This document shows positions 10,551-52,394 of a DNA stretch of 58,198 nt, piece after piece. Origin of the DNA: Cyanobacteriota bacterium. Its GTDB lineage: Bacteria > Cyanobacteriota > Cyanobacteriia > SKYG9. The DNA is taken from positions 1-58,198 of the forward strand of contig JANWZG010000001.1 in the NCBI GenBank assembly GCA_025054735.1, given 5' to 3'. A program made the position numbers and the translations under genes. Within the stretch, counting starts at the first letter, position 1, and every line of letters begins with the position of its first letter. The notes under the pieces are model-generated. The model did not search any database and was not told where the DNA came from. It saw nothing but the letters and a program-made list of their open reading frames with translations.

Positions 10551-12881
10551 TTAGCTATCAATAGACAGGGTGCTGGAATCTTGGGTGACGCGACCGAGTT
10601 CAGGCAGCTTCCAGCTAATTTCTCGATCGCCAATCTGGATTGTCTCTGGAATTTCCAAACTCTTTGCCTTTTGGGGATGGTTGGCAATAATACCCAAGAT
10701 AGGTAAATGATATTTCTCTAACTGTTTAATTACCTTGTTGACTGCCGAGCGTTTGGTTTCTCGCACAGCAACTACCATCAAGATGCCATCTGTGTAAGTT
10801 GCCAAGAAGTTAGCATCCAGAGGGCCTAGTAGGTCAGGAGTATCATAAATAACAAGATCAAACTGTTCTTCTAGGCGTTTTCTGAGGGTTTGCATTTGAG
10901 CCGAAGCCAGCAGCTTGGCAGAACCAGGAATAGCCCGACCAGAGGGCATGACATAGAGGTTTTCTGCCACAGGCGACTGTTGAATCAGGTAACTGGGTTC
11001 GACCTGATCCACTAGAAAATCACTCAGCCCTTTGGCGTTGGAAATATTCAGGCGATCGTGAATATCGGGCAGGCGCATGTTAGCATCCACCAGCAGAACC
11101 CGTTGACCCATGCTAGCTGCTGCCTGGGCTAAATGTAGCGCTACAGTTGACTTGCCATCTCCAGAAGATGCAGAACAAATAGCTACCGATCGGGGTGGAT
11201 TAAAAAACAACAGCTTTAGGTTGCCATAGAGTGTATCAAAAGCATTAAGAAAACTGGCTGTATTTGAAGCAGCTTCTAGATCGTCATCTACCTTAGACAG
11301 ATCTACAGGATCTGAGGAACTAAGTAGGTGTTGATAAAAAGGAATTGACCCCAAGAGTGGGAACGGCAATCCATCTTCCACATCTTCTACGCTGTAGAAA
11401 ATATCGCGGTACATCTCCCAAAGTATGGCCGCACCTACCCCTAACATCAAACCAGCTATCACCCCTAATAGCTGCTTTTTACGGTCAGGAGACTCTGCCA
11501 CCGGATTACCGTTGACATCTCTGGGGATACCTGGCTTGGAAATTAGTTCCCACGGTACTTGACTTTGGGCTGCCTCTACCCGCAGGGTTTCTCGTTGCAC
11601 TAACAGTTGATCTAGGGTGCGCGTAGCAATCTCTAACTGCCGTTGAATTTCAGTATAGCGGCCTGCAATCTCTGGGAATTCCCGCAGACGTGCTTCTAGT
11701 TCCCGCTTGGTTTTGGCAATGTCTTGACTGCGTGCCTCTAGGAGTTGAATCTGTGTAGTAGCGGCAACAAGTTGCTGAATCAATCCCAGCCGCACACTGT
11801 CCTGATAGGCAGTGACTTGGGGATTACTTAACACTCCAGTTAAGCTCTCTCCTGCGATCGCACGAGCCTCGTTTTGCAAGAGAGCTAACAGAGTCTGCTT
11901 TTGCTCTTGCAATGCTTGAATATTAGGGCTATCTGGCTGAAATCGAGTAGAATCAACAGCAATTTGAGTGTCAACAGCAGCTATTTTGGTGATAATTCCC
12001 TGATAGGTGGGATTTTGACTAATGGCAGCCGCAACGACTGCTTCCTGAGGCGAGAATCGTAACTGACTAGTCAGAGAATTGAATAATGTTTGTTGCTCAA
12101 TGAGCTGTCGTTGAGTATCTTGCTGTTGGACAGTAGTTTCGTTCAGCCGAGAAAGCAAGTTTCCGCCTTGGGCAGCCGGGTCAATCATCTGATACTGCTG
12201 TTGGAGTTGCCGCAACTGTTGCTGAAGCCCTGATACCCGTGCTTGTAAGCTTGGAAGTTGGTCTTCAATAAACTTAACCCCTTCACCCAGCCTACTTTTG
12301 CGCTCTTCCAGACTGTACTTTAGGTACTTGCTGGAGACGACCTCTAGTACATGTTGTACTAGGTCAGGGCTGTAGCCCTGATAGGTAACTTGTAAAATTT
12401 TTGTCTGCCCGTTTTCATCAACTCGCTTAACTTCCAAACCCTCTCTCAGGCTACTAGAGTTAAAGTCAGGAAACTTAGTCTTGACCTGTTCGCTAATTTC
12501 TGAAAGGATTTTGGGACTTTTGAGAATCTCTAACTGGGTTGCGTAGTCTAGCTCGGCGTTGGTTTGTGGGCCACCCCTAGCCACTACGGTGGGGTCTGTC
12601 AGCTTGGCCTCGGTCGAGACAGGCTCAACTAGAACTCGAAAGCCACCCGCGTAAATAGGGGGGCCTGGGTCACCTATGATAAACCCTAGTACGCCGACGG
12701 CAAAGGTGACAGAGGCAATGATGATTGAGCGCCGCTTGATAGTACGCAGGTATGGACGGAAGTTTAAGCCTTTTTTGGGTGTTGCAGAGTCATCAAATTC
12801 ACCGTCACTGGCAGGTTCTGGTACTACTTGCCGTGGTTGATAACTTGTCCCTATCGCCTCTACCCCGTTATGAAGTTCCAT
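10551..12881 (-). CDS. Wzc/GumC-like polysaccharide co-polymerase with a C-terminal BY-kinase-type P-loop domain
   Basis: 776 aa. It has a Wzz-like N-terminal part with TM helices and a long coiled-coil periplasmic region. It then has Walker A (SSGDGKST), A' (LLVDANMRLPD) and B (DLVIYDTPD). Confidence 0.85.
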   Translation of the reverse strand: MELHNGVEAIGTSYQPRQVVPEPASDGEFDDSATPKKGLNFRPYLRTIKRRSIIIASVTFAVGVLGFIIGDPGPPIYAGGFRVLVEPVSTEAKLTDPTVVARGGPQTNAELDYATQLEILKSPKILSEISEQVKTKFPDFNSSSLREGLEVKRVDENGQTKILQVTYQGYSPDLVQHVLEVVSSKYLKYSLEERKSRLGEGVKFIEDQLPSLQARVSGLQQQLRQLQQQYQMIDPAAQGGNLLSRLNETTVQQQDTQRQLIEQQTLFNSLTSQLRFSPQEAVVAAAISQNPTYQGIITKIAAVDTQIAVDSTRFQPDSPNIQALQEQKQTLLALLQNEARAIAGESLTGVLSNPQVTAYQDSVRLGLIQQLVAATTQIQLLEARSQDIAKTKRELEARLREFPEIAGRYTEIQRQLEIATRTLDQLLVQRETLRVEAAQSQVPWELISKPGIPRDVNGNPVAESPDRKKQLLGVIAGLMLGVGAAILWEMYRDIFYSVEDVEDGLPFPLLGSIPFYQHLLSSSDPVDLSKVDDDLEAASNTASFLNAFDTLYGNLKLLFFNPPRSVAICSASSGDGKSTVALHLAQAAASMGQRVLLVDANMRLPDIHDRLNISNAKGLSDFLVDQVEPSYLIQQSPVAENLYVMPSGRAIPGSAKLLASAQMQTLRKRLEEQFDLVIYDTPDLLGPLDANFLATYTDGILMVVAVRETKRSAVNKVIKQLEKYHLPILGIIANHPQKAKSLEIPETIQIGDREISWKLPELGRVTQDSSTLSIDS

Positions 12882-21764: not shown

Positions 21765-22964
21765 CTACTTGGTCTTACCATACCAACTAGACTTGAGGCG
21801 GCGGTTGTACAGCCATTGTCGATTTTCTGGCGAGTCAAACAACCATCGCTCAATCAATTCGCCCCATTTGACCGGAATTTGTAGCCGTTGCCAAGCTTCA
21901 GCAGAGGCCTGGGATAGCGCTTGGTAAAGGCTAGCGTCTGTTTGTAGGGTTTTGATAGCCCTAGCGAGGGCTGTTGGCTGTCCGGCGGGGAAGATTATGG
22001 CGTTAGTCTGGTGGTGAAGTTTTCCTAAAAACATGGGGTGATCGGAGGCTATGATCGGCGTGCGCGAACACATGGCTTCGTAGAGAGTCATGGGGAACCC
22101 TTCTGGATACTCGTGACGACTAGGTACTACCACTGCGTCTGCCTCTCGCATCAGATGCACAACCTGCTTGTGGGGCACCAATCCCAGAAATTCCACTTGG
22201 TCAACAATTCCTAAGCTGGTAGCCTGTGCCTTAAACGCCTCTAGATCACCACGTCCAGCTACCTTCAATCGTGCCACTAGCCCTTGACTTCGCAACTGGC
22301 TAAGGGCATCTAGAATGTCACCTACCCCCTTAGCGGCGATGACTGAGCCGACATACACCAGCTTAAAAGGCTGTGTTGAATCTGGTTGGCTTTTGGGTGT
22401 AAAGTCATCGGGTCGCATGGAGTGGGGCCAATCCCAGGGGATGATTTTATTGGGATTAACCCCGATTGCTTGTAGCGATCGGGCTGAGTTTTCACCATGG
22501 TTGCCCACCCAGTTCACTAGGGGATGGTTGAGCTGGCGTGCCAACAAGAAGCCTTTAAATTTCTCCTTCAGCTTAGTGTGGTTGAAGGAATCAGCTAGTA
22601 ACCCTAGGGTTTTAAACTGCGACTGAATTGCCCAGGCAAACAGCTTGCGGTCAGGGAAGCCAATCGTTACATGGGTTGGATTTTGAGCCGCCACTAGAGC
22701 AGCCAATTCACCAGCATTGATACTACCGGAAGAACCAGCTCCGATCGCGCGCACATCATTTGCTAATACCTTGTTGTAAGGTGCCGGTGTACGGTTACAA
22801 ATCACGGTGAGGTCATCAATTTTCTGGCGGAGATCGCCCACAAAATCTACCGAGTAGCGCTGAGCATAGTAGGTCTCGTCACCACCGGCTGCAAACCGTT
22901 CAAAGGCATCACCATAGTCACCGGCATATTGCAGCATCACTAGCCGAATGCCACTAGTGCTCAT
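21765..22964 (-). CDS. GT4-type (GT-B) glycosyltransferase
   Basis: 399 aa with a C-terminal EX7E-like region (PSRHEYPEGFPMTLYEAMCSRTPIIASD). It abuts the next gene with no gap. Confidence 0.75.
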   Translation of the reverse strand: MSTSGIRLVMLQYAGDYGDAFERFAAGGDETYYAQRYSVDFVGDLRQKIDDLTVICNRTPAPYNKVLANDVRAIGAGSSGSINAGELAALVAAQNPTHVTIGFPDRKLFAWAIQSQFKTLGLLADSFNHTKLKEKFKGFLLARQLNHPLVNWVGNHGENSARSLQAIGVNPNKIIPWDWPHSMRPDDFTPKSQPDSTQPFKLVYVGSVIAAKGVGDILDALSQLRSQGLVARLKVAGRGDLEAFKAQATSLGIVDQVEFLGLVPHKQVVHLMREADAVVVPSRHEYPEGFPMTLYEAMCSRTPIIASDHPMFLGKLHHQTNAIIFPAGQPTALARAIKTLQTDASLYQALSQASAEAWQRLQIPVKWGELIERWLFDSPENRQWLYNRRLKSSWYGKTK

Positions 22965-26120: not shown

Positions 26121-27155
26121 ATGTCTGAGACTGTCACCATTGACGACTTTTTCCGAGCACCCGGAGTGATTCTGGATGTCCGCAGTCCGGCTGAATATGC
26201 TGATGGGCATATTCCTGGAGCCGTCAGTTTTCCCCTTTTCAGCGATGAAGAACGAGCGCTAGTGGGTACTTGCTACAAGCAGCAGGGGCGAGACTTGGCG
26301 ATCGAACTAGGCTTAGAACTGGTTGGCCCCAAGTTAGCTACCTTCGTCCGACAAGCTAAGCAACTGACAGCCGATCGCACCCTGCGAATTCACTGTTGGC
26401 GAGGGGGAATGCGCAGCAGCAGCATGGCTTGGTTACTGGAGACGGCTGGTTTTTCCACCACTGTGCTGACGGGCGGATATAAGGCATTTCGCCAATGGGT
26501 ACGCCAAACCCTGGCAATTCCCAAACCTATCCTGACCTTGGGCGGCATGACAGGTACAGGCAAAACTGCTGTGCTGACTGCATTAGCGGCACTGGGTGAA
26601 CAAGTATTGGATTTAGAAGCCTATGCCCATCATCGGGGCAGTAGCTATGGCAGCTTGGGATTGCCCCCACAACCAACCCAAGAGCAGTTTGAAAACCATG
26701 TTGCTCTGGCATGGGCTGCCTTGGATGCTCAGCGCCCAATTTGGATTGAGGCCGAAAGTCGTCGGATTGGACTGTGTCGTATACCCGATGAGTTATTTCA
26801 GCCCATGATGCGTGCGCCGGTAGTGCAAATTGTTCGATCGCGGTCTGAACGCATTGCCCTGTTGCTAGCAGAATATGGCTCTGCAGACCCTGAAGGCTTA
26901 GTCGCTGCAACTGAACGTCTGCGCAAGCGGTTGGGTGGTCTGCGCACTCAACAAGCTGTGGAGTTTATTCGCACAGGACAGCTAGCCGCTGCGATCGACC
27001 TAGTGCTGGATTATTACGACAAAACCTACACCTATGACTTGCAAAAACGTCAAGTCCCGATTTACACAATCAACGCTACTGGGTTGGATGCTCAACAAAC
27101 TGCTCAACTGCTAACCGAGAAAGCCGCCTTTGGTCATTTTCAAAGGGAGAATTGA
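26121..27155 (+). CDS. selU: tRNA 2-selenouridine synthase
   Basis: 344 aa. It has a rhodanese domain with active-site CWRGGMRS followed by a P-loop (GGMTGTGKT), which is the SelU/MnmH (YbbB) architecture. Confidence 0.9.
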   Translation: MSETVTIDDFFRAPGVILDVRSPAEYADGHIPGAVSFPLFSDEERALVGTCYKQQGRDLAIELGLELVGPKLATFVRQAKQLTADRTLRIHCWRGGMRSSSMAWLLETAGFSTTVLTGGYKAFRQWVRQTLAIPKPILTLGGMTGTGKTAVLTALAALGEQVLDLEAYAHHRGSSYGSLGLPPQPTQEQFENHVALAWAALDAQRPIWIEAESRRIGLCRIPDELFQPMMRAPVVQIVRSRSERIALLLAEYGSADPEGLVAATERLRKRLGGLRTQQAVEFIRTGQLAAAIDLVLDYYDKTYTYDLQKRQVPIYTINATGLDAQQTAQLLTEKAAFGHFQREN

Positions 27156-48553: not shown

Positions 48554-51500
48554 CTAATCAGGGCGTTGGAGGTCAGCGGGGGGCAGCCAAGTTGTGATTC
48601 GCCCCTCTGCTGTCAGACAAGCGATGCCATCACTGGTGATGCTATGGACAATGAGAGTGCCGGGATACTGACGCTGCAAGTTGGGATGGTTACCGATGTA
48701 AGCAACTCGATCGCCAACCGCAAGGGGACAAGGGACGATCGACGCAGCATCTACAGCCTTTAACGTTGGATCAATTTCATCAACACTTGTCTGAATATCC
48801 CCCCGCGACGGGCTATGGGAAGTTGATCTCTCCAGCAACGATTGATCAATACCATTTCCAGCATCATCTCGGTCATTAGTTTCATCGCCCTGGACAGATC
48901 CAGAGCCAGGAGGACTGCCACTCAAGGTGGATGATTCTTTCACATCGTCTGGGAAAAGGGGTACAGGGACTTGGCTGATCACCTCTCTTGCTGGGGGGGA
49001 TAGAGGATATGCTTCTGCGTCTAGCTGGGGTCTAGTATCGGCGGCAGCAGTTGATGGCTGATCGGGCAATTGTGGATCAGGATCAATGCCAATATCTGGC
49101 TCTGGGAAAGGGTCGATCGTCCCTGAATTGATCAATTGTTGATGGTCAGCATCCCTCTGATTCTCGATGAGAGAAAAGGAGTTGAGGGGGGTAGACAGGC
49201 TGGCAGTTTCCTGTAGAGTAGGCACACTCTGACCAGAGGGTATATACACCGACTCAGCACCCACGCCCTCGATCGTCCCGTGACCCGCAGCAACCAGGGT
49301 TTGCATCAACTGGCGAATTTGCTCCACGGGCATCCGCCGCAGGGCATAAACACCGCTCTTAGCTTGGGAAGCTGTGACCCTGCCCAGTTTTTCGGCATAG
49401 CGTTGCAGTTTCAGGCTAGGGCCTTCTAAACCAGCGTCGGGAGAGTTGTGGGTGTAAATCAGGCGGTATTGCCAGAGGTAGTAGGCAGCTAGTTCGATCG
49501 CCTTTTCCATGGTGTCGCCGGTGATCACTTGGGTGGGACGATCGCCGCGCAGGGTCGCATTCACCAAATGTAGCCATAGTGCCAGCCGACTGGTGTAAGA
49601 CTCTATTTTGGGATAGACTGCCCGCAGTCCCACTGCTGATTCCGTAATCTGAGCATCGACTAATTGATGTTGCCAGGTTTCTAGCAGTTGTTTTGCCTCG
49701 TAACTGAGCAGGTAGTCTTGGGGAGGAAGCTGCTCCAGGTCGCGGTAGAGGCGCATCAAGGCTTCAGAGATGCCTGTATCTTGGTCATCTTGCAACAAAC
49801 GGAGATAGCGCCGGGGGAGTTTGGGGGCACAGAGCAACCAACGGGCAAAGCTACCATTGAAATCAGTGTGGTCGCCCATGAGCTGGCTCAGGGTTTCCCA
49901 TTGGTAGGCTCCGGTGCGAGAGACCGCAGACTGGGCAAGGCAAACGGATTTTTCGGCACGATCGTACAAAATCGCTGCCCCATTCCACTGGTCTAGTTCG
50001 GCCTCTTCATCGGCACCCACACCACCTCTGTACATATTGCGAGATTTAACATTGCCCACCAATTCATCGCGATAGTAGAGGATGCCGCGTGGGTTTTCGC
50101 TGTGAATACGTTGCAGGGTTTCCAGGGTGACATCCTTAGTAACATAGCGCTTGCGAGTAGGGGGCTGGCGATAGTCTCCATCCTGGGACTTGTTGGCAGC
50201 CTGTTGCTCTGCTTTGTAGTCGGCAAGGTCTAGTTGGTAGCGATCGTGTGCCTCCTTTTCCAAGGCAATTAGAGGATCGATAATCACCCGCTGCACTGGC
50301 GTTTTCAAGGAGCCAGAATCTGCTACCACCGCTGTCCAAAACACCATTGGTTGAGTATATTTGGCACTAGGCTTGACTACGACCCGTGCTCCGGTACCAA
50401 TGCGCGAAGCAGCAGCAGGCAACAACGTCGTGAATAGCATTTCTGGAGCCGTTGGCATGGCCCTAGCTGTATCAATCAATTGTTGAGCAAAGGCTGGCTC
50501 TAGGTAACGGTGTAGATTGAGTTGCGTGTGGCGGATGTTCAGCAGGTTGTGCAGTTTTTGAATGGCATCGGCTAGGTTGGTTTGCAGGTCAACTTCAATC
50601 ATCAAGGCCTGTGCTAGGTGAGAAATATCACGGTAGTAATAGCCTGCCGTTTGTGCCAACTCCATCAGGGCAAACTCTCTCTGTCCTGGGGAATCGTGCT
50701 GCCGCAGAATCGTGAGGATCTGATCCCGGAGAGAGGGAGAAGCTGACGGAGGATGGAGAACAGGGGATGGAGGGACAGCAAGGGCGGCAGCAGTGAGGAA
50801 ATCTTGCCAGGTGTAGCCGACATCAAGGGCATTGGAAACATCCCAGCCAGCGATCGGGCAATCCTCTGGCATGGGCACTTGGGCAATGCGTCCCCGATCG
50901 CCCAGCACCAGCGCTAGTTTTTCTGCCCCAGCCTCTCCTGGAACTACACCATCTTTACGAGGTTCGTCATTACGATCAAAGAAAATCGTCACTGTACCCG
51001 GTAAGGGATCCAACTGGTCAAGGGGTGGTATGGTGCCGCAGCCTGCGGTAGAACAAGCAACAGCAATCGATGCCCCCTGCTGTTGTGCTTCCCAACCAAG
51101 ACGCATCCCATCCCATTCCCCTTCACAGAACCAAGTCTCTGTAGCATTCTCTGGGTGATAGGTCAGCCACACCGTTGCCGGAACCCCGTACTGGCTCCAG
51201 CGGCTCAGACCATCGGGACGATCGTCCCCCGTTAGCCATGGTGCAATGCGTAACTTGCGGTAAAACTGTCCCGGCTGGTTGGGTACAGGAATGTGCAGGG
51301 CGATCGCCCACACATAGCGTAACTGCGGGTGATCCTTGAGGGGATAGCGCTCCAACCCAAGCTGGAAATGGCGGATCATGTCACGGGTAAAGCCGCGACC
51401 CTCTAGCCAGCAAAGAGCCTGCTGTTGATCTGGTTGACTCGCACTGAGCAGACGATCAACTGACTGCTGCACCTGCCGTCGGCTAAAGACCTGTGGCGAA

Positions 51501-51820
51501 CGCAGCCCGACCTTTGTGACCTTCGTGTCTTTGTGGTGTTCTTGTTTGCAGTGTTCTTGAACAGAGAACCCAGCACTCGCAGCAAACGGTAGCGGTGCAT
51601 TCAACGCCGCCCGGATCTGCTCTGGCGTGCAGCCGCGATAGCACCAATACTTGCCGTTGTCATTGACCTGAAGGTTTTTCTGCTTGAGCTTGCCGTCCTG
51701 TTCGCAGCTAGGACAACTCGCCCGCCCATTGTGAACTTCGATGTAATTACGAATGTCAAATTTACACCCGTTGCGGGTGTGCGCTACAATCTTACTAAGC
51801 ATGATAAATATCCAGCTCAT
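48554..51820 (-). CDS. Large primase-helicase-like replication protein (zinc finger + Toprim-like + DUF3987-like), plasmid or mobile-element type
   Basis: 1088 aa. It has a Cys-rich finger (CPSCEQDGK...WCYRGC) and acidic Toprim-like motifs (WFCEGEWDG, TIFFDRNDEP). A DUF3987-like centre follows (PRGILYYRDELVGN, GGVGADEEAELDQWNG). The protein ends in a P/S/D-rich low-complexity linker and a small C-terminal beta domain (VGDRVAYIG...LIVHSI). An alternative start is ATG 51802. Confidence 0.8.
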   Translation of the reverse strand: MSWIFIMLSKIVAHTRNGCKFDIRNYIEVHNGRASCPSCEQDGKLKQKNLQVNDNGKYWCYRGCTPEQIRAALNAPLPFAASAGFSVQEHCKQEHHKDTKVTKVGLRSPQVFSRRQVQQSVDRLLSASQPDQQQALCWLEGRGFTRDMIRHFQLGLERYPLKDHPQLRYVWAIALHIPVPNQPGQFYRKLRIAPWLTGDDRPDGLSRWSQYGVPATVWLTYHPENATETWFCEGEWDGMRLGWEAQQQGASIAVACSTAGCGTIPPLDQLDPLPGTVTIFFDRNDEPRKDGVVPGEAGAEKLALVLGDRGRIAQVPMPEDCPIAGWDVSNALDVGYTWQDFLTAAALAVPPSPVLHPPSASPSLRDQILTILRQHDSPGQREFALMELAQTAGYYYRDISHLAQALMIEVDLQTNLADAIQKLHNLLNIRHTQLNLHRYLEPAFAQQLIDTARAMPTAPEMLFTTLLPAAASRIGTGARVVVKPSAKYTQPMVFWTAVVADSGSLKTPVQRVIIDPLIALEKEAHDRYQLDLADYKAEQQAANKSQDGDYRQPPTRKRYVTKDVTLETLQRIHSENPRGILYYRDELVGNVKSRNMYRGGVGADEEAELDQWNGAAILYDRAEKSVCLAQSAVSRTGAYQWETLSQLMGDHTDFNGSFARWLLCAPKLPRRYLRLLQDDQDTGISEALMRLYRDLEQLPPQDYLLSYEAKQLLETWQHQLVDAQITESAVGLRAVYPKIESYTSRLALWLHLVNATLRGDRPTQVITGDTMEKAIELAAYYLWQYRLIYTHNSPDAGLEGPSLKLQRYAEKLGRVTASQAKSGVYALRRMPVEQIRQLMQTLVAAGHGTIEGVGAESVYIPSGQSVPTLQETASLSTPLNSFSLIENQRDADHQQLINSGTIDPFPEPDIGIDPDPQLPDQPSTAAADTRPQLDAEAYPLSPPAREVISQVPVPLFPDDVKESSTLSGSPPGSGSVQGDETNDRDDAGNGIDQSLLERSTSHSPSRGDIQTSVDEIDPTLKAVDAASIVPCPLAVGDRVAYIGNHPNLQRQYPGTLIVHSITSDGIACLTAEGRITTWLPPADLQRPD
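51762..51790 (+). promoter_or_regulatory. Candidate sigma70 promoter on the strand antisense to the rep gene
   Basis: TTACAC (51762-51767), 17 nt, then TACAAT (51785-51790), read directly inside the first codons of the rep ORF. Confidence 0.4.
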
Positions 51821-51869
51821 GGCTGGGCGAATGACGACCCACTAGCTCGCAACTAGTGGGTTTTGTTTT
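51797..51869 (+). ncRNA. Candidate ~70-nt antisense RNA covering the rep start codon(s) and 5' leader
   Basis: Bounded by the promoter above (predicted start near 51797) and the plus-strand terminator at 51838-51869. It is complementary to both possible rep start codons (51818-51820, 51800-51802). Confidence 0.35.
51838..51869 (+). terminator. Plus-strand intrinsic terminator with no plus-strand gene to terminate
   Basis: CCCACTAG (51838-51845) pairs with CTAGTGGG (51853-51860) around a 7-nt loop, then TTTTGTTTTGGGTTTTG follows. On the minus strand the hairpin is followed by non-U-rich sequence. Confidence 0.6.
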
Positions 51870-51932
51870 GGGTTTTGTGTTTGCAAATAACTGGAAAATG
51901 AGACCGGAATGCCGCCCTCACCCAGGTGCTAA

Positions 51933-52166
51933 CTAGCCCTCTGCACCTTCGACGCGACGGGTGCTGTCCAGATCTTGAACTCGCACTAGTTTGTAAGTAC
52001 CTCGTGCTAGTTGCTCCAAAAGTTCGCACTTTGTCCGCACATTTTCTTGAGCTGCTAGCTTGTCTAGGGCTAACAGAGCTGTAGGTGTGAGAGACAGGGT
52101 GGTGCGCGTTTTTGGCTCACCCCATGCCAGGGGACGACCCAACCGTTCGCGTTTTCTGGTTTGCAT
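51933..52166 (-). CDS. Small ribbon-helix-helix-like DNA-binding protein upstream of rep
   Basis: 77 aa with a basic N-terminus, then a beta-strand-like RTTLSLTP and two short helices (TALLALDKLAAQENV, RTKCELLEQLARG). Confidence 0.45.
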   Translation of the reverse strand: MQTRKRERLGRPLAWGEPKTRTTLSLTPTALLALDKLAAQENVRTKCELLEQLARGTYKLVRVQDLDSTRRVEGAEG

Positions 52167-52204
52167 TGGACGTAACAGCAGTTGAAAAATAGTGATCCTG
52201 ATCT

Positions 52205-52254
52205 TAATGCATAACTAATGCATAAGAAAGTATTTGGTATGCATTAATGCATAA
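52205..52254. promoter_or_regulatory. ATGCAT-core repeat cluster (candidate operator/iterons)
   Basis: TAATGCATAA occurs at 52205-52214, 52216-52225 (11-bp phasing) and 52245-52254. A perfect 16-bp palindrome TATGCATTAATGCATA lies at 52238-52253. All are 39-88 nt upstream of the RHH start. Confidence 0.55.
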
Positions 52255-52349
52255 CATTTTGTTACGCAGCACTGGTTTAAACACCGATCGCCCTGTTACA
52301 GATCGATCACTTTTGGGAAAAGCTTTCAGGGCTTGCGATAGATAACTAC

Positions 52350-52393
52350 TAATGACTCAAGTAATAATGACTTAATAATGACTCAAGTAATGA
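52350..52393. repeat. TAATGA(C) direct repeats at the island/rfbD junction
   Basis: TAATGACTCAAGTAAT occurs at 52350-52365 and 52376-52391. Partial copies are TAATGACTT at 52365-52373 and TAATGA at 52388-52393. The cluster ends 2 nt before the rfbD stop codon. Confidence 0.6.
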
Positions 52394-52394
52394 T

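Follow-up and report, generated by a model that had tools for sequence, protein, structure and literature searches.

Does the DNA opposite the translation start of rep, a primase-helicase gene, encode an antisense RNA that limits the supply of the initiator? The locus lies in a stretch of 58,198 nucleotides of cyanobacterial DNA, which was analysed as a whole and is called the window below. The initial annotation had read its plus strand over the rep start as a candidate countertranscript gene with its own promoter and intrinsic terminator. All sequence-level checks agree with that reading: the promoter hexamers are invariant, the codons beneath them are those that favor the promoter, synonymous change is suppressed, pairing is kept on the plus strand, conservation ends at the U-tract, and a CopG-like gene lies upstream of rep. 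On this basis, we lean slightly towards a cis-encoded countertranscript that would occlude the ribosome-binding region of rep and would work alongside a CopG-like repressor, an arrangement known from pMV158. The features are listed in Table 1.

Table 1. Features of the rep start region (positions refer to the window)
Feature	Position	Strand	Remarks
rep, primase-helicase, 1082 aa, DUF3987	48554..51802	-	Start codon 51802-51800 inside predicted RNA
-35-like hexamer TTTACA	51761..51766	+	Overlaps rep codons Cys13-Lys14; part of 10/12 site
Inverted repeat ACACCC-N5-GGGTGT	51763..51781	.	Inside promoter spacer, rep codons 7-13
-10 hexamer TACAAT	51785..51790	+	Rep codons Ile5-Val6 (ATT GTA) on the opposite strand
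Predicted countertranscript, ~74 nt	~51797..~51870	+	5' end inferred 7 nt past -10; 3' end inferred in U-tract
Single-stranded AU-rich 5' tail AAGCAUGAUAAAUA	51797..51810	+	Complementary to rep start codon and adjoining upstream spacer
Hairpin 1, (U)CCAGC-UCAUG-GCUGG(G)	51811..51827	+	Complementary to rep-mRNA hairpin with first ATG and Shine-Dalgarno-like GGA
Terminator hairpin	51836..51862	+	10 bp (8 core pairs, A-U, G.U); loop CUCGCAA
U-tract UUUUGUUUUG, predicted 3' end	51861..51870	+	9/11 alignment columns invariant
77-aa probable ribbon-helix-helix (CopG-like) gene	51933..52166	-	Upstream of rep, same strand, 130 nt gap
ATGCAT-centred conserved repeats and invariant TAAGAT (52206-52201)	52201..52256	-	Upstream of CopG-like gene

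The rep gene and its neighborhood

The rep product matches Pfam DUF3987 (1.3e-42) as well as the PHROGs helicase (6e-21) and primase/helicase (7e-7) families, and its homologs were found in 51 plasmid records, including cyanobacterial plasmids of 7-8 kb. The contig itself contains mainly polysaccharide genes. Its ends do not overlap, and the ORFs checked on it include no genes for partition or transfer. For these reasons, "plasmid copy-number control" is an assumption here. Iteron-like repeats at 52347-52394 are not conserved in relatives and were given no weight.

Two in-frame ATGs, at 51820 and 51802 on the minus strand, could open the rep reading frame, and NCBI places the start at the second. 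The first is TTG in relative L031, so the second is likely the true start. The initial annotation had the RNA pairing with both possible start codons and the leader; both ATGs are indeed covered, and only the one at 51802 is a likely start. On the sense strand, a hairpin CCAGC-CAUGA-GCUGG contains the first ATG and a GGA triplet located 8 nt ahead of the real start.

The 77-aa protein encoded upstream is named "CopG family transcriptional regulator" by NCBI and is 87-99% identical in relatives. Its match to Pfam RHH_1 (E = 0.01, 16.2 bits) lies under the cutoff of 20.5 bits, and a PDB profile search returned no match. The AlphaFold2 monomer model has low-confidence helices at residues 28-41 and 46-54 after a TTLSLT segment and, at a pLDDT of 53, is unfit for a fold search. 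No conserved promoter was found in the spacer between this gene and rep, and the two genes are likely co-transcribed. The conserved repeats upstream of the 77-aa gene are the probable promoter and operator of the operon.

A promoter-like site inside rep codons

The candidate promoter on the plus strand has the register TTTACA-18 nt-TACAAT (51761-51790), with a sigma-70-like score of 10/12 at the motif level, and is the top promoter-like site within the 5.5 kb scanned. The location and the TACAAT hexamer are those first proposed, while the original register, TTACAC with 17 nt, gives way to one shifted by 1 nt because its -35 element is poorer.

Both hexamers overlap rep codons, and the choice of these codons was compared with the synonymous alternatives. 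TGT-AAA, under the -35, is the best synonymous option for a -35 match. ATT-GTA, under the -10, is the best among 12 options, and GTA makes up only 21% of the Val codons in the window. Of the 48 synonymous combinations, ATT-GTA with TGT-AAA alone gives the highest opposite-strand sigma-70 match (neutral probability 0.03). The -35 and -10 hexamers are invariant in 7/7 distinct relatives, despite their location in coding sequence. We infer that a non-coding plus-strand RNA of about 74 nt would be transcribed from this promoter of its own, embedded in rep codons 5-14.

The promoter spacer holds an inverted repeat whose stems are invariant in the seven relatives and whose loop varies at 3/5 positions. 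From its sequence, it could be an operator or a hairpin of the rep mRNA.

Extent and fold of the predicted RNA

The intrinsic terminator, originally described as an 8-bp stem (51838-51860) followed by a U-rich run, is present and extends to 10 pairs. The core stem is CCCACTAG/CTAGTGGG (51838-51845 / 51853-51860), the hairpin begins 45 nt beyond the -10 hexamer, and the tail that follows it is UUUUGUUUUGGGUUUUG. Transcription would thus stop between the CopG-like gene and rep, at this intrinsic terminator. Folding of 51797-51873 gave -25.6 kcal/mol (z = -2.46), and an identical fold was predicted in all 7 relatives, with z from -2.5 to -2.8. The 5' tail was unpaired in all folds. The terminator loop contains a YUNR motif (CUCG), to which no weight is given since about 1 in 5 such loops would be expected to contain one by chance.

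The predicted RNA spans the rep AUG, the GGA at 51815-51813, and about 68 nt of the rep leader. The claim that no plus-strand gene exists here holds at the locus: an ORF inside the predicted RNA has 14 codons and loses its ATG in relative L031, for which reason a small encoded peptide was rejected. Two further contacts were also dropped, one a pseudoknot of a loop with the downstream sequence and the other a match of the terminator loop to the loop of the spacer inverted repeat; neither co-varies in L031.

Conservation in the relatives

Searches with Rep and the 77-aa protein yielded seven distinct relatives, all of which have the 77-aa CopG-like gene followed by rep. Among them, pairwise identity is 0.98 in hairpin 1, 0.95 in the U-tract, and 0.92 in the terminator; the 5' tail (0.86) and the linker (0.80) are the two least conserved segments of the predicted RNA. 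Identity falls from about 0.95 to 0.50 immediately past the U-tract; elsewhere between the CopG-like gene and rep (-130 to -70) it is only about 0.6, and indels occur. The conservation peak, from -76 to +100 (0.94-0.98), exceeds the level in the rep body (about 0.8-0.9). The fraction of variable synonymous sites is 0.19 in rep codons 1-30 against 0.53 gene-wide, and the reduction is significant over codons 1-35 (Fisher p = 7e-4), bearing in mind that low synonymous change at the 5' ends of genes has other possible causes.

The terminator stem differs between its two readings. On the plus strand, 70/70 cells are paired (10/10 pairs in 7 relatives), whereas the minus-strand reading introduces C.A mismatches: L029 and L033 have them in the stem, and most sequences have them at the outer pairs. 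The changes comprise one compensatory pair, from A-U to G-C, and swaps between A-U and G.U at three pairs. By parsimony, these include about four independent one-sided transitions in the stem, all favoring the plus strand (p ~0.06). Covariation is thin, as there is one two-sided pair change, in one sequence, and 65/500 shuffles do equally well. All 6/6 pairs of hairpin 1 are invariant, which makes it uninformative for covariation.

Beyond this group, the element was searched for in several collections. A covariance model (R1) scored 90-108 bits, in the seven relatives only. At the corresponding position of Rep loci with 32-60% identity, no antisense terminator is present, and the model found no matches there; Rep homologs at 55-60% identity are among those that lack the element. 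The element is thus not family-wide; on the sequences searched, it is specific to one narrow clade and not traceable deeper. No further copies were found in the plasmid collection by megablast or blastn, and viral contigs gave 0 matches. The JGI metagenome contigs gave 0 matches with the degenerate coding pattern and 0 with the hairpin pattern, in a collection that is incomplete, given that the hairpin pattern does match JGI contig L033. A further protein search with the Rep N-terminus returned only relatives below 50% identity, and Rfam reported nothing at gathering thresholds for the whole window.

Proposed mechanism and alternative explanations

The predicted RNA has full complementarity to the final ~68 nt of the rep leader, the Shine-Dalgarno-like GGA, and the AUG at 51802. 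It would pair with the mRNA running from the CopG-like gene into rep and occlude the ribosome-binding region, so that less primase-helicase would be translated. Pairing would probably initiate at the AU-rich single-stranded 5' tail or at the loops. The 77-aa CopG-like protein, for its part, probably acts at the ATGCAT repeats as a repressor of the operon promoter; RNA and protein would then provide two layers of negative feedback on the supply of initiator, as CopG and RNAII do in pMV158.

The same conservation might be explained by hairpins that act solely in the sense leader of the rep mRNA, through sequestration of the GGA and AUG or as a stability stem, with no antisense RNA and with an incidental promoter and U-tract. 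Both hairpins form on the minus strand too, the consensus folding energies are nearly equal (-36.7 kcal/mol on the plus strand and -36.0 kcal/mol on the minus strand) and do not discriminate between strands, and the sense hairpin encloses the first ATG and the GGA. Likewise, the invariance of hairpin 1 and of the inverted repeat in codons 7-13 does not distinguish the strands. The explanation is nevertheless unlikely, as the main stem suffers the C.A mismatches in the sense reading and keeps every pair on the plus strand; moreover, it leaves the conserved A run 5' of the hairpin, and the end of conservation exactly there, with no role, and the best-of-synonymous codons under the hexamers unexplained. 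An element acting at the level of DNA, either part of an origin (e.g., a single-strand initiation hairpin for the primase-helicase) or an autoregulatory binding site for Rep or the CopG-like protein, would account for a perfect 9-bp inverted repeat beside phased A/T tracts directly upstream of the initiator gene, and for nucleotide-level conservation that extends into rep codons. It also speaks for this account that the surroundings of the module yielded no other conserved repeats resembling an origin, and a single-stranded DNA hairpin is compatible with the strand asymmetry, because G.T is the most tolerated mismatch in a DNA hairpin of the plus strand. We regard this account as quite unlikely. 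It does not predict invariant hexamers at 18-nt spacing, a rare GTA that is optimal for the -10, or a conservation edge at the T-tract; the compensatory change from A-T to G-C is expected of a folded strand and unnecessary for a duplex binding site; and the motif proposed as operator of the CopG-like protein is another one, the ATGCAT repeats.

The antisense RNA could also be real and act by another route, namely by triggering cleavage and decay of the rep mRNA through RNase III or E, by interfering with transcription, or by attenuating it ahead of rep in the manner of pIP501 and pT181. The RNA itself is then backed by the same evidence as in the preferred reading, and a weak terminator-like hairpin with a U-rich tail lies on the sense strand just before the rep AUG (51826-51812), the usual position of an attenuator. 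There is also a precedent in pSYSA, where the sense ssr7036 transcript is cut by RNase E and overlapped by an abundant antisense RNA (PMC9978351). However, the sense tail is lost in L031 (AAUCUAAAUAUG) and its stem has just 5 pairs, so attenuation is not conserved, and the pIP501/pT181 type was dropped for this reason. Decay may accompany a translational block, and the two are inseparable by sequence. Given the full overlap with the AUG and the ribosome-binding region, a direct translational block is the simplest route, and we give the others little credence. Lastly, the motifs might be meaningless promoter-like and terminator-like strings. In the chance test, a promoter of at least 10/12 had to be followed by a terminator of at least 8 bp within 20-150 nt, on both strands of the window and of its dinucleotide shuffles. 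The real 58-kb window has 1 such pair, the one described here, and a pair occurs in 12% of shuffled windows; the pair alone is therefore not significant window-wide. What carries the weight is that the pair lies over the rep start and is conserved in relatives, not the motif pair as such. Chance is very improbable, since the nucleotides are conserved well beyond the level of the gene body or the adjacent spacer, synonymous change is suppressed, and substitutions have left the pairing intact.

Comparison with known copy-control systems

The closest parallel to the countertranscript reading is pMV158, a streptococcal rolling-circle plasmid in which a small ribbon-helix-helix repressor gene lies directly upstream of rep in the same orientation (PMC4485353, PMC5717011), as does the probable CopG-like gene here, whose RHH_1 score is sub-threshold. 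In RNAII of this plasmid, an unpaired 5' tail precedes a G+C-rich terminator hairpin that is followed by a U tail; the RNA is complementary to the region between copG and repB and acts by inhibiting translation of repB (PMC4485353). The RNA predicted here would share the opposite-strand origin, the short length, the AU-rich 5' tail, a terminator hairpin of 8-10 bp with a loop of 6-7 nt, and the U tail. It is also complementary to the intergenic and translation-initiation region, and inhibition of rep translation would be expected by analogy. In contrast, RNAII, at 48 nt and with a single hairpin, stops just upstream of the signals for repB initiation, whereas our candidate of about 74 nt begins within rep, covers the AUG, and has an additional small hairpin. 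The initiator also differs, being a primase-helicase of 1082 aa rather than a small rolling-circle nickase. No sequence homology to the pMV158 system was found for any part.

In plasmid R1, CopA is the main copy-number sensor and blocks translation of the leader peptide tap, which is coupled to repA. The R1/IncFII CopB-CopA-CopT arrangement resembles the one proposed here in that a repressor gene is co-transcribed with rep and a stem-loop antisense RNA acts on the rep leader (CopB: PMC5717011). Leader-peptide control of the R1 type was discarded for our locus: there is no separate leader ORF, and the sole upstream ATG shares the rep reading frame and is lost in L031. Furthermore, CopB represses a second promoter inside the operon, while the corresponding spacer is unconserved here. 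In ColE2-type plasmids, antisense RNA I (~115 nt) is directed against the 5' untranslated region of the mRNA of Rep, a plasmid-specific primase, and keeps its translation low. An initiator with primase activity and a cis-encoded countertranscript over the leader, predicted in our case, are common to both; ColE2 differs in having no known CopG-like partner, an unrelated Rep family, and a longer RNA.

Synechocystis pSYSA, which is also cyanobacterial, has a small ORF directly upstream of a large primase-helicase-type Rep and a cis-antisense RNA within the module, as predicted here (PMC9978351). Its asRNA1 is abundant, about 153 nt long with three stem-loops, and has been proposed to exert ColE1-like control of a priming transcript (PMC9978351). 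Unlike our candidate, which lies over the rep start, asRNA1 overlaps the coding region of the small ORF; the plus strand opposite the 77-aa gene yielded no promoter-like site. By BLASTP, Rep and CyRepA1 are not meaningfully similar (best E = 0.003 over 37 residues), so a common family was not borne out, and the 77-aa protein has no similarity to Ssr7036. In a permissive Rfam search, ctRNA_pGA1 (RF00236) was the only model of the right kind that touched the right strand and span (51809-51875, plus strand); its membership was rejected, as its score is at chance level (15.4 bits against a gathering threshold of 45 bits, E = 2.5).

Implications

Antisense control of initiator translation is textbook plasmid biology, and the mechanism itself would not surprise a specialist. 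To our knowledge, replication control of cyanobacterial plasmids is poorly known, with pSYSA as the main studied case, which works differently. We also know of no description of how DUF3987 primase-helicase genes are regulated, common as they are on cyanobacterial plasmids (51 records in our plasmid search).

A more speculative possibility, which we consider improbable, is that the CopG-like gene, the countertranscript, and rep form the self-contained copy-control core of an uncharacterised cyanobacterial DUF3987 clade, in which the invariant ACACCC-N5-GGGTGT would serve as an operator for Rep or the CopG-like protein in the countertranscript promoter and so link the initiator level to antisense output. 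We are not aware of such initiator-to-antisense wiring among the classical constitutive copy-control RNAs.

If the countertranscript is confirmed, the repressor, the countertranscript, and the initiator would form a compact portable module of less than 4 kb. A synonymous mutation of the -10 hexamer would then be a way to raise copy number, which would be useful for cyanobacterial vectors, and the locus would add a further example of a promoter inside a coding sequence that is maintained through codon choice.

Candidate promoter and terminator opposite the rep start

The plus strand carries a sigma-70-like site matching 10 of 12 consensus positions (TTTACA, an 18-nt spacer and TACAAT), which was the top such site within the 5.5 kb scanned. 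The hairpin GACCCACUAG-CUCGCAA-CUAGUGGGUU, followed by UUUUGUUUUGGGUUUUG, lies 45 nt past the promoter. Both features were found where the initial annotation had placed them; a one-base shift of its -35 register, to TTTACA, gives a better fit. It was also right that no plus-strand gene exists here; the predicted transcript contains a sole ORF, 14 codons long, whose ATG is lost in one relative.

Requiring a promoter of at least 10/12 and, within 20-150 nt downstream, a terminator of 8 bp or more, we found one pair in the window, at the rep-start site. Of the dinucleotide shuffles made from the 58-kb window, 12% contain such a pair; on its own it is barely more than chance, and the case therefore rests on position and on the relatives. 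Three further pairs were recorded, each with a promoter-like site and then a terminator within 150 nt, against about four expected in shuffles; these are possibly small transcripts or chance.

Features at the rep locus and further promoter-terminator pairs
Feature	Position	Strand	Remark
-35 hexamer	51761-51766	+	TTTACA
-10 hexamer	51785-51790	+	TACAAT
Inverted repeat	51763-51781		ACACCC-N5-GGGTGT
Terminator hairpin	51836-51862	+	
77-aa ORF	52166-51933	-	upstream of rep
Spacer	between 77-aa ORF and rep	-	~130 nt
rep, 1082 aa	start 51802	-	primase-like N-terminal third and DUF3987 helicase domain
Repeat block	52201-52256		upstream of 77-aa gene
Triple direct repeat	52347-52394		AT-rich, iteron-like
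Further pair	11968-12117	+	9/12 site, 9-10-bp terminator
Further pair	22289-22483	+	9/12 site, 9-10-bp terminator
Further pair	26652-26774, reverse-complement coordinates	-	9/12 site, 9-10-bp terminator

The rep start was placed at the second in-frame ATG, because the first (51820) is TTG in the relative L031 and distant Rep homologs have 8-13 residues ahead of the conserved FDIR motif (the second ATG gives 14, the first 20). The NCBI annotation of the large protein uses the same start. With transcription beginning about 7 nt past the -10 hexamer, the predicted RNA would span rep +5 to -68, covering the rep AUG, a GGA triplet that precedes it by 8 nt, and a small sense hairpin containing both. 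Separately, rep is called as two ORFs (370 and 720 aa) in assemblies L030 and L036 versus one ORF (1113-1121 aa) in L038-L040, with an identical leader; a frameshift or an assembly error could account for the two-ORF form, or it could be a pseudogene.

Conservation among relatives

The window is a contig from a cyanobacterial MAG. Starting from Rep and from the cluster of the 77-aa protein, we gathered contigs of relatives from NCBI, Logan, ENA and JGI. Seven distinct leader versions were obtained (the window, L028, L029, L030, L031, L033 and L042), with Rep identity to the window, obtained for three, of 86% (L028), 81% (L029) and 75% over the C-terminal part (L030). The small gene precedes rep in all relatives and the upstream flanking genes differ, so the module travels as a unit.

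A four-sequence profile along the locus gave two peaks, one over the small gene and its upstream region (0.90-0.97) and one spanning the rep start from -76 to +100 (0.94-0.98); identity in the rep body is about 0.8-0.9. Between the peaks, from -130 to -70, the spacer contains indels and its identity is only about 0.6. This implies high neutral divergence and, over the segment with the candidate RNA and its promoter, nucleotide-level selection. Block by block, pairwise identity among the seven sequences was 1.00 in the -35 and -10 hexamers, 0.92 in the promoter spacer, 0.86 in the 5' tail, 0.98 in hairpin 1, 0.80 in the linker, 0.92 in the terminator hairpin and 0.95 in the U-tract, falling to 0.50 in the 20 columns just past it; this drop lies at the predicted 3' end.

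The element was absent from Rep homologs at 32-60% identity, and is, on the sequences compared, confined to a narrow clade. No further copies were found in the plasmid, viral or JGI collections searched; the JGI negatives are weak, since the hairpin pattern matches L033 (JGI 3300033063) exactly and the scan returned nothing, so that collection lacks some JGI contigs.

Codon usage and folding strand

The promoter sits within rep codons 5-14, where it is read on the opposite strand: the -10 coincides exactly with the Ile-Val codons ATT GTA, and the -35 with the Cys-Lys codons TGT AAA. Among columns with identical amino acid, synonymous differences were 0.19 in codons 1-30 versus 0.53 gene-wide, and 7/31 versus 412/762 for codons 1-35 (Fisher p = 7e-4); within codons 1-14 they are confined to the promoter spacer. 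No other of the 48 synonymous combinations fits the promoter consensus as well as the observed codon set (probability 0.03 given the window's codon usage, in which GTA makes up only 21% of Val codons), and the ATT-GTA/TGT-AAA combination is kept in all seven relatives.

All seven versions give an identical predicted fold (z -2.5 to -2.8), in which an AU-rich 5' tail of 14 unpaired nt leads into a hairpin of 6-7 bp, and a short linker connects this to the terminator. Read on the plus strand, the 16 proposed pairs form in every sequence (112/112 cells); in the terminator stem, both partners of one pair are replaced in L029 (A-U to G-C), and three pairs show A-U/G.U switching. The same substitutions on the minus strand give C.A mismatches, with 13-15 of the 16 pairs formed. 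A U-A to U.G change is present in L029 and L033 and missing from L030 and L042, which are their nearest relatives; it therefore probably has two origins. Some four independent transitions, each one-sided, all point to the plus strand (p ~0.06 if the strands are equally likely). The shuffle control of covariation was not significant (65/500), hairpin 1 has no variation among the seven sequences, and the consensus energies are nearly equal (-36.7 and -36.0 kcal/mol on the two strands). These data are suggestive, not decisive, of plus-strand folding.

The stems of the inverted repeat between the candidate -35 and -10 (rep codons 7-13) are invariant in seven relatives, while its loop varies at 3 of 5 positions. 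It could be an operator of the antisense promoter or a rep-mRNA hairpin just past the start codon. For the inverted repeat of the terminator hairpin, a role at the DNA level, in an origin or in single-strand initiation, is a less likely alternative, and it would leave the promoter evidence unexplained. We hold with moderate confidence that the site encodes a countertranscript that would repress rep translation; the countertranscript reading of the initial annotation finds support in the comparative evidence and is still a prediction.

The CopG-like gene and its upstream region

Autorepression by the 77-aa protein has indirect support. It carries the NCBI name 'CopG family transcriptional regulator'. 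Its match to RHH_1 is sub-threshold (E = 0.01), and a low-confidence structure model has a strand-helix-helix pattern. The repeat block upstream of its gene holds TTAATGCATAAC in three direct copies and one inverted. Two of its ATGCAT palindromes, 11 bp apart, adjoin a minus-strand TAAGAT that does not vary. Kept in all relatives, the block is probably the operon promoter with a CopG-like operator. Since rep has no candidate promoter of its own in the unconserved spacer, the simplest interpretation is co-transcription.

The 82-aa CopG-like versions P0121 and P0123 (L029, L030) carry a 5-residue tandem duplication (RVQDL RVQDL/RVQEL) at residues ~60-70, in the C-terminal tail. The triple direct repeat is TAATGACTCAAGTAAT with 11-15 bp spacing; its region is unconserved, and the relatives lack equivalent repeats.

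Comparison with known systems

No Rfam model matched at threshold. A permissive scan placed ctRNA_pGA1 (RF00236) on 51809-51875 (+), with the right strand and span, at 15.4 bits versus a gathering score of 45 (E = 2.5); membership was rejected, the match being at chance level. Control of the R1 type works via a leader peptide, and attenuation of the pIP501/pT181 type requires a sense terminator; each was rejected, as the rep locus has neither a leader peptide nor a conserved sense terminator.

The nearest functional match is pMV158, in which CopG and the 48-nt RNAII control repB (PMC4485353). RNAII combines a single-stranded tail of 17 nt and a U tail with an 8-bp hairpin whose loop has 6 nt. 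Its sequence is complementary to that between copG and repB, it inhibits translation of repB, and its binding is driven by the tail and not by loop kissing (PMC4485353). In contrast, the predicted RNA here is longer, has an extra hairpin, starts inside rep and covers the AUG, and the initiator is unrelated and much larger. The logic of a Cop protein plus antisense RNA is common to R1 (PMC5717011). In the studied cyanobacterial case, pSYSA, gene order is alike, but asRNA1 lies over the small ORF, and the role proposed for it is control of a priming transcript (PMC9978351), whereas the predicted RNA here covers the rep start. Neither Rep nor the 77-aa protein is similar to its pSYSA counterpart.

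Replicon context and proposed mechanism

The contig is mostly a polysaccharide-synthesis cluster (exopolysaccharide genes for a Wzz/BY-kinase-like protein, flippase, epimerases, glycosyltransferases, rmlC/rmlD) and also carries Uma2-family genes and a C5 DNA methylase. Among the ORFs checked, none for partition or transfer was found, and the contig ends have no terminal overlap. Cyanobacterial plasmids, some of them 7-8 kb in size, commonly carry the initiator family, and copy-number control is the role that we infer for the predicted RNA. The proposed cis-encoded countertranscript would pair with the rep translation-initiation region and block ribosome binding, and alongside it the upstream CopG-like protein would autorepress transcription as a second layer.
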